Below, piece by piece: positions 9,741 to 10,350 of a stretch of 64,000 bases of DNA (the first letter of the stretch is position 1; each line of letters starts with the position of its first letter). The stretch is from an uncultured bacterium (GTDB lineage Bacteria > Omnitrophota > Omnitrophia > Omnitrophales > Abzuiibacteriaceae). The notes under the pieces are model-generated. The model was given only the letters and a program-made list of their open reading frames with translations. It did no database searches and was not told where the DNA came from. The position numbers and the translations under genes are program-made. The stretch covers positions 256,001 to 320,000 of the forward strand of contig CAYLXA010000001.1 of assembly GCA_964387845.1 (NCBI GenBank), in the 5' to 3' direction.

Positions 9741-9771
9741 AAAAAGAAAAAACCCGGCCATTCTGGCCGGG
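9741..9771 (-). terminator. Rho-independent terminator reading on the minus strand (stem cccggcca/tggccggg, followed on the minus-strand RNA by a U tract)
   Basis: Plus strand aaaaagaaaaaa-cccggcca-ttct-ggccggg. The A tract directly precedes the stem, so the minus-strand RNA has the U tract after the hairpin. No annotated minus-strand gene ends within 570 bp upstream. Confidence 0.5.
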
Positions 9772-9952
9772 TCGAATATTTTTTTAGGTCCTTCTGCTTT
9801 TGCCGGGTTGAGCTTGAACTTTTCGTTTGCGGAATTCTGCTCGAAAAGTGATGTTACTTTACTACGATAAAAAAATCGGTCAAGTCTTTTTTTTAAAAAT
9901 ACCTAAATTCCTTCTGCCTACTTTAATAACCTAATCTGCCAGAAAAAGGTTT

Positions 9953-10015
9953 GGCTAGAGAGCGCTCGACCCGGCAAGGAAGAAGCTCTCAGGGCATTTA
10001 AGCCTTTTCGCCAAC
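9953..10015. repeat. Copy 1 of a conserved ~60-nt intergenic element (ggctagagagcgctcgacccggcaRggaagaaSctctcagggcatt(t)aagccttttcgcca)
   Basis: About 90% identical to 18638..18697. It contains the palindrome gagcgctc. Both copies are preceded on the plus strand by an A-rich tract. Confidence 0.6.
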
Positions 10016-10350
10016 CCTTTTCATTGCTATCTACAGCCTAAAGTCAACTCTATTCAAAGATCAAGTCCAACGTATCAAAATTTGCGCTTTCTCTACTGAC
10101 ACTAGATGAAAATCTATCCACACTAGATAAATCTGAAAATAAGTTTTAATAAAGTAACTATTTAGTCAAACAAAAGACCACATATTTTAGCCGAAATTAC
10201 TAACCGACTCGGCCAACCCATCACGGCTGCTTCTTCAACAAGGCTCTAAGAGAGCTCCTGTTTCCATTTCAACCTGTCTTACCCGTATCCAATAAATCCG
10301 AAGCCAGCGGATATTTCGCTTCATCAGTTTCTTGAATGTCAATTTCTGTT

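Follow-up and report, generated by a model that had tools for sequence, protein, structure and literature searches.

Intrinsic terminators of bacterial genes combine a G+C-rich stem, a U-run behind it and an A-rich tract upstream, and lie just downstream of a gene on the same strand; their outer stem is free in sequence if pairing is kept, their loop spans 3-8 nt, and there is no need for 95% identity between copies. The small RNAs (sRNAs) derived from 3' untranslated regions (3' UTRs), such as CpxQ, SroC and DapZ in enterobacteria, share the terminator of the parent mRNA; they are conserved structured segments at the mRNA 3' end that end in this terminator and are better preserved than the remaining 3' UTR. 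Other systems of interest are attenuation leaders and riboswitches, in which a T-run lies before a start codon with upstream segments able to pair with the terminator arms, and the short, discrete and structured intergenic repeats, including repetitive extragenic palindromes and their mosaics (REP/BIME), miniature inverted-repeat transposable elements (MITEs) and integron attC sites. Here, a repeated element is described in a window of 64,000 nt (the whole stretch of DNA analysed) from a metagenome-assembled genome of an uncultured Omnitrophota bacterium. Its two copies, E1 and E2, lie between genes of the minus strand, E1 being upstream of an operon that encodes an immunoglobulin (Ig)-like secreted protein and an RHS toxin. 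From sequence and modelled folds, it is tentatively proposed that E1 and E2 form a branched module of the intrinsic-terminator or 3'-end type that separates transcription units of the same strand, a reading that is plausible though it may well be wrong. The repeat, the folds, the U-runs, the compensatory pairs, the sister-strain constraint and the absence from the searched databases were directly computed; from these we infer the strand, termination and any regulation.

The core of 62 nt is present as two direct copies, found by repeat search and alignment at a spacing of 8673 nt (Table 1). The copies are identical at 59/62 positions and differ by two substitutions and one 1-nt indel; from E1 to E2, these are an indel in the P2 loop, a substitution in the apical loop and a stem substitution absorbed by a register shift. 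A preliminary description of this DNA had correctly noted the recurrence of a ~60-nt sequence; however, the ~90% identity that it gave was too low (95% measured), and its second copy, at 18638..18697, was placed ~12 nt too high. The similarity between E1 and E2 ends abruptly at TGGC...GCCA, and the flanks on either side have no DNA or protein-level likeness, which discards a segmental duplication. A 19-mer of the core occurs twice in the window vs 0.00 times expected from shuffles. No third copy was found with a covariance model of the two copies in the window, in 5.2 kb beyond the window start or in the enolase loci of relatives, giving a copy count of two in about 69 kb scanned. A coding role was also discarded, as the indel shifts the frame between the copies and the stop of a plus-strand mini-ORF (open reading frame) is lost in L022, the sister-strain contig that covers E1.

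The core is predicted to fold as a three-way junction on either strand. On the minus strand, the predicted layout of E1 is TGGC-GAAAA-[GGC UUAAAU GCC]-CU-[GAGAGC UUC..CC UUGCCG GG..GAG C GCUCUC]-UA-GCCA, with a folding energy of -29.4 kcal/mol (z = -2.2), while E2 reaches -31.5 kcal/mol (z = -3.0) on the minus strand vs -25.0 kcal/mol (z = -1.6) on the plus strand. The closing stem P1 consists of UGGC/GCCA and 4-5 extra pairs contributed by the flanks, with an A-rich tract before it and a U5 run directly after it. E1 reads GGGUUGGC...GCCAAACC followed by UUUUU, and E2 reads GCGUGGC...GCCACG followed by UUUUUAUUAU. On the minus strand, the T5 run lies within 2-4 nt of the closing stem in both copies (CCTTTTTC in E1, CGTTTTTATTAT in E2), whereas the plus strand has a T-run at E1 only; only 2-3% of window positions have a T5 run beginning within 8 nt. 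The P1 extension differs in sequence between the copies with its pairing kept, including double changes at 20-83 (U-A / G-C) and 17-86 (G-C / A-U) and a G-C / G-U change at 18-85; overall, 95.6% of cells are paired, vs 26-60% with the 3' partners slid by 1-3 columns. The sole stem substitution of the core, C to G at 9985 (= 18658), is absorbed on the minus strand by a 1-nt register shift in which P3 retains 9 pairs, and P3b holds a U-G pair there, the plus-strand counterpart of which would be an A-C mismatch. The L022 sequence has lost one nucleotide on the 5' side of E1 and the C after the T-run, changes that keep the stem and turn the T-run into T6. The shared T-run, the compensatory P1 extension, the absorbed stem change, the stability of E2 and the changes in L022 thus favour the minus strand as the one probably transcribed.

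The combination of P1, A-rich tract and U5 run corresponds to the geometry of a Rho-independent terminator, save that a conserved 54-nt insert with two hairpins stands in place of the loop. E1 and E2 both have the stem and U-run of an intrinsic terminator; however, neither is a simple hairpin with a loop of about 3-8 nt, since the stem encloses two further helices, and a terminator consensus scan reports neither copy. The canonical terminators of the window (9741-9775, 445-468 and 21377-21412) are simple hairpins, unlike the element.

The position of both copies relative to the genes is also that of a terminator. No minus-strand terminator-like site was found between the 182-aa (amino acid) protein gene and E1, nor between the FG-GAP gene and E2, so that E1 and E2, respectively, are the first terminator-like structures after a minus-strand gene. 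On the same strand, no acceptable promoter was found upstream of E1, and the best -10 candidate in the DNA immediately before E2, TAACAT, lacks its last T in the sister-strain contig L018; because no -10 is conserved there, the element probably forms the 3' end of the transcript of the gene before it. As a structured RNA module of ~75-80 nt on the minus strand, it would end, or conditionally end, the transcripts of the 182-aa gene at E1 and of the FG-GAP gene at E2, and this termination would insulate the next same-strand units, which are the RHS leader and operon and the 113-aa/kinase cluster, respectively. The near-invariant interior together with the covarying outer stem suggests a sequence recognized by a protein or a partner RNA, or the release of the module as a 3'-UTR-derived sRNA. 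Similarly to such sRNAs, the element would be a conserved, structured 3'-terminal mRNA segment ending in a predicted terminator, with 1/123 differences in the cores vs 7.8% in the 3' spacers between strains.

These strain differences come from the orthologues of a sister strain, in which both loci are present in Logan contigs of SRR18669184, SRR18669185 and SRR18669186. The sister strain was reached through the 113-aa protein, which has one 97%-identical relative, and the 182-aa protein, which has two cluster mates. The counts for each segment are given in Table 1; the spacers upstream of both elements pool to 32/411 differences, significantly more than the cores (Fisher p = 0.0023). Covariation across related genomes, suggested as a check in the preliminary description, was run on this one sister lineage, where the stem pairs are kept; no other homologue was found. 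Divergence falls at each element, from 6.3% upstream to 1.1% downstream at E2 (p = 4e-10) and from 7.8% upstream to 3.0% downstream at E1 (p = 0.008), which indicates that E1 and E2 coincide with recombination-tract boundaries.

Table 1. Features of the E1 and E2 loci, with differences from the sister strain where both sequences were compared.
Feature	Coordinates	Strand	Differences	Remarks
E1 core	9952..10013	-	1/62	From repeat, alignment and fold; the L022 orthologue differs only at 10001 (P2-loop base)
E1 with non-conserved P1 extension and T5 run	9943..10020	-		10014-10020 pairs with 9948-9951; T5 at 9943-9947
Spacer upstream of E1			26/337
Downstream of E1	9722-9951		7/230
E2 core	18625..18685	-	0/61	Identical in sister-strain contigs L018 and L019
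E2 with P1 extension and U-rich tail	18611..18690	-		18686-18690 pairs with 18620-18624; T5 at 18618-18622, then ATTATAG
Spacer from FG-GAP stop to E2			6/74
Downstream of E2			1/189
Canonical intrinsic terminator T	9741..9775	-		10-bp stem 9751-9773 with 7 G-C pairs, then TTTTTTCTTTTT at 9741-9751
Segment B	9791..9813	-		GCUCAACCCGGCAAAAGCAGAAG; inverted partial copy of the E1 P3 region (19/23)
Stem-loop 1	9818..9849	-		ACUUUUCG / CGAAAAGU; 8-bp stem, 16-nt loop; both L022 substitutions (9831, 9830) in the loop
Sigma-70-like promoter candidate	9856..9883	-		TTGACC, 16-nt spacer, TAAAGT; A/T-rich tract before; predicted start near 9849
Ig-like secreted protein gene	8194..9705	-		First gene of the Ig-like/RHS operon; RHS gene at 1980-8192
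182-aa protein gene, no assigned function	10351..10899	-		Stop 337 nt upstream of E1
113-aa orphan gene	18094..18435	-		189 nt downstream of E2; first in the acyl-carrier protein / response-regulator / methyltransferase / 7TM-kinase cluster
FG-GAP/VCBS repeat protein gene	18760..20502	-		Stop 74-75 nt upstream of E2

Several observations weigh against the proposal of a terminator or 3'-end module. The pooled cores show no stronger conservation than the non-coding DNA downstream (8/419 differences, p = 0.69); the low divergence runs on downstream of each element, so recombination tracts or linkage to the downstream units, and not selection on the element, could account for part of the core conservation. 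The covariation is thin, with two essentially independent sequences and three variants, and its score was reached by 29/500 shuffles. Intrinsic terminators do not typically hold a branched insert of 54 nt, such structures may terminate poorly, and the need of a terminator for 54 invariant interior bases is not evident. As to the strand, the P2 helix has slightly better pairing when read on the plus strand (5 pairs, one of them G-U) than on the minus strand (3 pairs), and a perfect extended -10 of the plus strand (TGCTATAAT, 18609-18617) lies 7 nt before E2 and is aimed into it; this site is antisense to the 3' end of the FG-GAP gene, and E1 has no equivalent. The comparison with the downstream DNA, together with the presence of the element in a single lineage, would also suit a functionless duplicate whose conservation derives from recent recombination or gene conversion. 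This is very improbable, however, as the duplication is older than the strain split, yet the paralogues differ at 3/62 positions vs 7.8% in neutral spacers between strains. Furthermore, of the four variant changes three are in loops and one is structurally absorbed, and the T-run and the stem extension are kept at both loci in different sequence.

Relatives of the element were searched in several collections. The Rfam 15 scan of the window with gathering thresholds reported only tRNA-Met, and permissive scans of both loci (E up to 10) gave only a weak ctRNA match on the element (E = 6.8). The 19-mer GAGAGCGCTCGACCCGGCA had 10 matches in GTDB genomes, all by chance, in G+C-rich taxa and with no likeness beyond the word itself. 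In JGI metagenomes, a 17-mer plus CTCTC gave 0 matches, and the other half of the element gave 50, about the chance expectation, all scoring <=24 bits with the covariance model vs 106-116 bits for true copies. Two patterns gave 0 matches in IMG/VR, BLAST against plasmids and phages gave no match, and a literature search on non-coding RNA of Omnitrophota returned nothing relevant. The only further copies were the orthologues in the Sequence Read Archive (SRA) assemblies of the sister strain, and the element thus appears lineage-specific as far as these collections show. A fragment of tRNA or tmRNA was rejected, with tRNA-Met at 21423-21498 the only one found. By reading of the sequence, a hammerhead ribozyme, signal recognition particle (SRP) RNA, a sigma-54 promoter, attC, the template/variable repeats of diversity-generating retroelements (DGRs) and domain V of group II introns were also rejected, their core motifs, spacings or partner genes being absent. 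The element would be a new, lineage-restricted one, present in no family library or collection searched, although its kind is known (terminator, 3'-UTR element or small RNA). If the proposal is true, it would represent a lineage-specific structured RNA module in Omnitrophota that marks the boundaries of transcription units and recombination tracts in an RHS-toxin island, and would exemplify a terminator whose branched interior is constrained in sequence, possibly with regulated read-through into a polymorphic toxin operon. With two copies in one lineage its practical value is limited, the main use being to part the repeat from the canonical terminator next to it.

That neighbour, terminator T, had been noted in the preliminary description as a clean Rho-independent terminator at 9741..9771 and is genuine, with a folding energy of -31.2 kcal/mol (z = -6.8) and full conservation in L022. 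Its stem ends 46 nt and its T-run 36 nt before the ATG at 9705. As had also been described, no ORF of at least 60 aa ends at the terminator; those of at least 20 aa in the region are all short and, where checked, not kept between copies or strains. The next minus-strand gene upstream, reported 575 bp away, is the 182-aa gene, whose end lies 578 nt from the T stem. E1 is situated 247 nt upstream of the ATG, in agreement with the previous estimate of about 250 bp upstream of the Ig-like/RHS operon.

Between E1 and T there are a sigma-70-like promoter candidate, stem-loop 1 and segment B (Table 1). The promoter candidate (9883-9856 in the direction of reading) was recognized from the consensus alone, and the region has no more matches of this kind than shuffles do; in L022, both hexamers are unchanged and the one nearby substitution is in the spacer. 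None of the seven differences of L022 in 9722-9951 falls in the -35/-10 hexamers, in the paired part of stem-loop 1, in segment B or in terminator T (chance 0.04). It is more likely that the promoter-like site, stem-loop 1 and T form a separate unit of ~105 nt beside E1. Since the 36 nt from the T-run to the Ig-like/RHS start codon showed no promoter-like site, this operon must be transcribed through T, and the ~105-nt unit is most readily interpreted as a leader of the attenuator type, or as a short sRNA sharing that promoter. The preliminary description had proposed an sRNA, or a 5' leader with an attenuator. What stands of it is that the region is non-coding, structured and constrained and that an attenuator before the RHS operon is reasonable; the element and the terminator, however, probably do not form one unit, as each copy has its own P1 and T5 run, E2 has no comparable downstream terminator and a promoter-like site lies between E1 and T. 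A single sRNA of ~275 nt reaching from at or just upstream of E1 to 9741, the first alternative of that description, is accordingly placed as improbable. In its favour, the block 9722-10015 is ~97% conserved in L022, with homology stopping 19 nt past the T-run, contains no ORF and folds more stably than shuffles (z = -4.6); however, besides the lack of an acceptable promoter upstream of E1 and the promoter-like site inside the block, transcription would stop early at the U5 run after E1, and the repeated unit is the 62-nt core only, with no equivalent of the downstream part at E2.

The homology with L022 (region 1600-2120) breaks at 9721..9722, 17 nt before the ATG; upstream of this point identity is 97%, and beyond it L022 has another allele of the Ig-like gene, with only 31% identity in protein. 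A conserved control region thus fronts a hypervariable RHS toxin locus.

Segment B is complementary to E1 in the minus-strand RNA, being an inverted partial copy of its P3 region; the local-alignment score was reached by 2/500 shuffles, the core match is 13/14, and the minimum free energy (MFE) fold of 9700-10025 pairs P3 of E1 with segment B. The 5'-arm region of T (UCGACCCGGC, 9766-9775) is, in addition, a perfect 10-nt complement of GCCGGGUCGA in the core; this 10-mer occurs three times in the window vs 0.05 expected, the other two being E1 and E2. However, the match is weaker evidence than apparent because the heptamer ACCCGGC is over-used in the window as a terminator-arm word (16 vs 5.1 expected), and terminator 445-468 has the same arms. 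These two terminators, 445-468 and 9751-9773, have arms of the AACCCGGC/GCCGGGTT type, with extra copies of the 5' arm upstream at 489-495 and 9802-9808. For pairing in trans between the element and the leader, cofolding gives gains of -7.1 and -6.1 kcal/mol, no better than with shuffled elements (mean -6, sd 2.6), which sets segment B apart from the partners of 3'-UTR-derived sRNAs, and a window-wide duplex scan does not single out the RHS leader. A regulatory link between the element and the RHS leader is only a possibility.

These complementarities, together with the low divergence from each element to the next start codon and the absence of a promoter-like site between the terminator and ATG 9705, speak for a cis-regulatory 5' leader, in which the element would be a riboswitch-like sensor for each downstream operon, acting at E1 through terminator 9741-9775. 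As in attenuation leaders, a T-run lies 36 nt before the start codon with upstream segments able to pair with the terminator arms, and three-way junctions are common in the aptamers of riboswitches. This alternative is unlikely, since E2 has neither a segment-B-like partner nor a comparable or convincing terminator downstream, and no evident expression platform, and the genes downstream of E1 (Ig-like/RHS) and E2 (113-aa orphan, acyl-carrier protein, response regulator, methyltransferase and kinase) are unrelated, leaving no recurrent functional association. Also unlike known leaders, E1 stands ~190 nt away from the terminator with a promoter-like site between the two, transcription of the leader itself would halt at the U5 run behind the closing stem, no Rfam family matches, and conservation is limited to one sister lineage.

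A more specific form of regulation can be envisaged in two ways. In one, E would be a regulated three-way-junction terminator in which the closing helix is the terminator stem and a ligand, protein or partner RNA gates read-through between toxin and signalling modules. In the other, its 3'-end fragment would pair with the RHS leader at segment B or at the 5' arm of T, relieving termination and switching on the Ig-like/RHS operon. That either of these applies is rather unlikely.

The palindromic content of the core is of interest for another alternative, a DNA operator or binding platform for a regulator of the island, for which the helix-turn-helix (HTH)-cupin protein (11091-12416) and the MerR-type response regulator (20529-21152) are candidates. 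The core holds an 8-bp palindrome (GAGCGCTC), the word GCTC(G/A)ACCCGGCAA is found inverted at 9800-9813 and partly at 9766-9775, and both copies are intergenic, upstream of operons and in a regulator-rich island. An operator would account for ~15-20 conserved bases, however, and not for a contiguous, sharply bounded run of 62; the two copies stand at unequal distances from the candidate promoters (~70 nt vs ~140 nt), and the compensatory flank changes and strand-specific T-run point to RNA. An operator is therefore highly improbable.

The genomic context was also considered. The window is assigned to Candidatus Omnitrophota by its enolase homologues. Positions 1-21400, below tRNA-Met, are missing from relatives that have the same enolase neighbourhood and core genes with 74-78% DNA identity, while 21468-33145 is identical to a Logan contig of SRR15237813 that breaks inside tRNA-Met. 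In L014, tRNA-Met is inverted (11850-11923), and the genes after it are BacA, radical-SAM and MetH. The response-regulator and FG-GAP genes recur in L018 (95.5% identity), preceded there at 1-62 by the 3' part of another tRNA with a Cys-like anticodon loop (CTGCAAA). The region behaves like a movable or rearranging island. Its divergence from the sister strain is a strong mosaic (17323-19335 vs L018/L019; 10292-13778 vs L020), with 6.3% in the FG-GAP part covered by L019 and 1.1% from E2 through the genes of the 113-aa protein, the acyl-carrier protein and the response regulator. It reaches 9% in the part with the response-regulator, HTH-cupin and 182-aa genes, and the mosaic indicates frequent recombination in the island.

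In such a setting, E1 and E2 could be a scar of recombination or mobility, either a miniature mobile element or the att-like or homology-anchor junctions of an inserted 8.7-kb signalling-gene module. Similarly to REP/BIME, MITEs and attC sites, the element is a short, discrete unit with sharp edges, unrelated flanks and same-strand genes around; its two direct copies enclose exactly one gene module, in a part next to tRNA-Met that varies between strains and where the same genes follow a different tRNA fragment in L018, and the fall of divergence at both copies agrees with a junction. On the other hand, only two copies were found in the ~69 kb scanned, both fixed at the same loci in the sister strain, with no target-site duplication at either and a terminal inverted repeat of only 4 bp (TGGC/GCCA). 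The attC core sites (RYYYAAC ... GTTRRRY) are absent on both strands by direct reading, with GTT 5' and AAC 3' in reverse order in E1 and neither in E2. No integrase, IntI, RAYT, transposase or other recombinase was found among the genes checked, which include the Pfam-scanned ORFs of the window and the precomputed families of fetched contigs to 5.2 kb beyond the window start, with the giant ORF 48031-63996 outside the scan. Moreover, no copies were found in IMG/VR, phages or plasmids, and an insertion scar would not be expected to share a T-run and a compensatory stem extension, which makes this origin doubtful, about as unlikely as the 5' leader.

On the minus strand, the genes around the two copies are ordered as the MerR-type response regulator, the FG-GAP protein and E2; then the 113-aa orphan, acyl-carrier protein, response regulator, methyltransferase, 7TM histidine kinase, 163-aa orphan and two response regulators; followed by the HTH-cupin gene (plus strand), the 182-aa orphan, E1, the promoter-like site, the stem-loop and terminator T; and finally the Ig-like protein, RHS, a TPR protein and a 210-aa orphan. 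The signalling cluster, an unusual one, spans 13664-18435, with its methyltransferase of the SAM type and its kinase of the 7TM-HisKA_7TM type. Exact look-ups of the 113-aa and 182-aa proteins and of the enolase were without success, although both island genes are called in contig L017. The orphans of 113, 182, 163 and 210 aa have no Pfam, NCBIfam or PADLOC family, and the FG-GAP neighbour has no homologue with >40% identity besides the source genome.

Outside the region of E1 and E2, the window contains a second, unrelated repeat (27076-27172 and 47118-47213) of ~97 nt, G+C-rich and 92-95% identical between copies, with a perfect hairpin (CCTTCTCCCTC-TAAA-GAGGGAGAAGG). Its copy at 27.1 kb occupies the gap between convergent SpoU and response-regulator genes and matches an alignment gap in L012/L014, and thus looks like an insertion. 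The giant ORF at 48031-63996 is on the minus strand, encodes at least 5321 aa and may run past the window.

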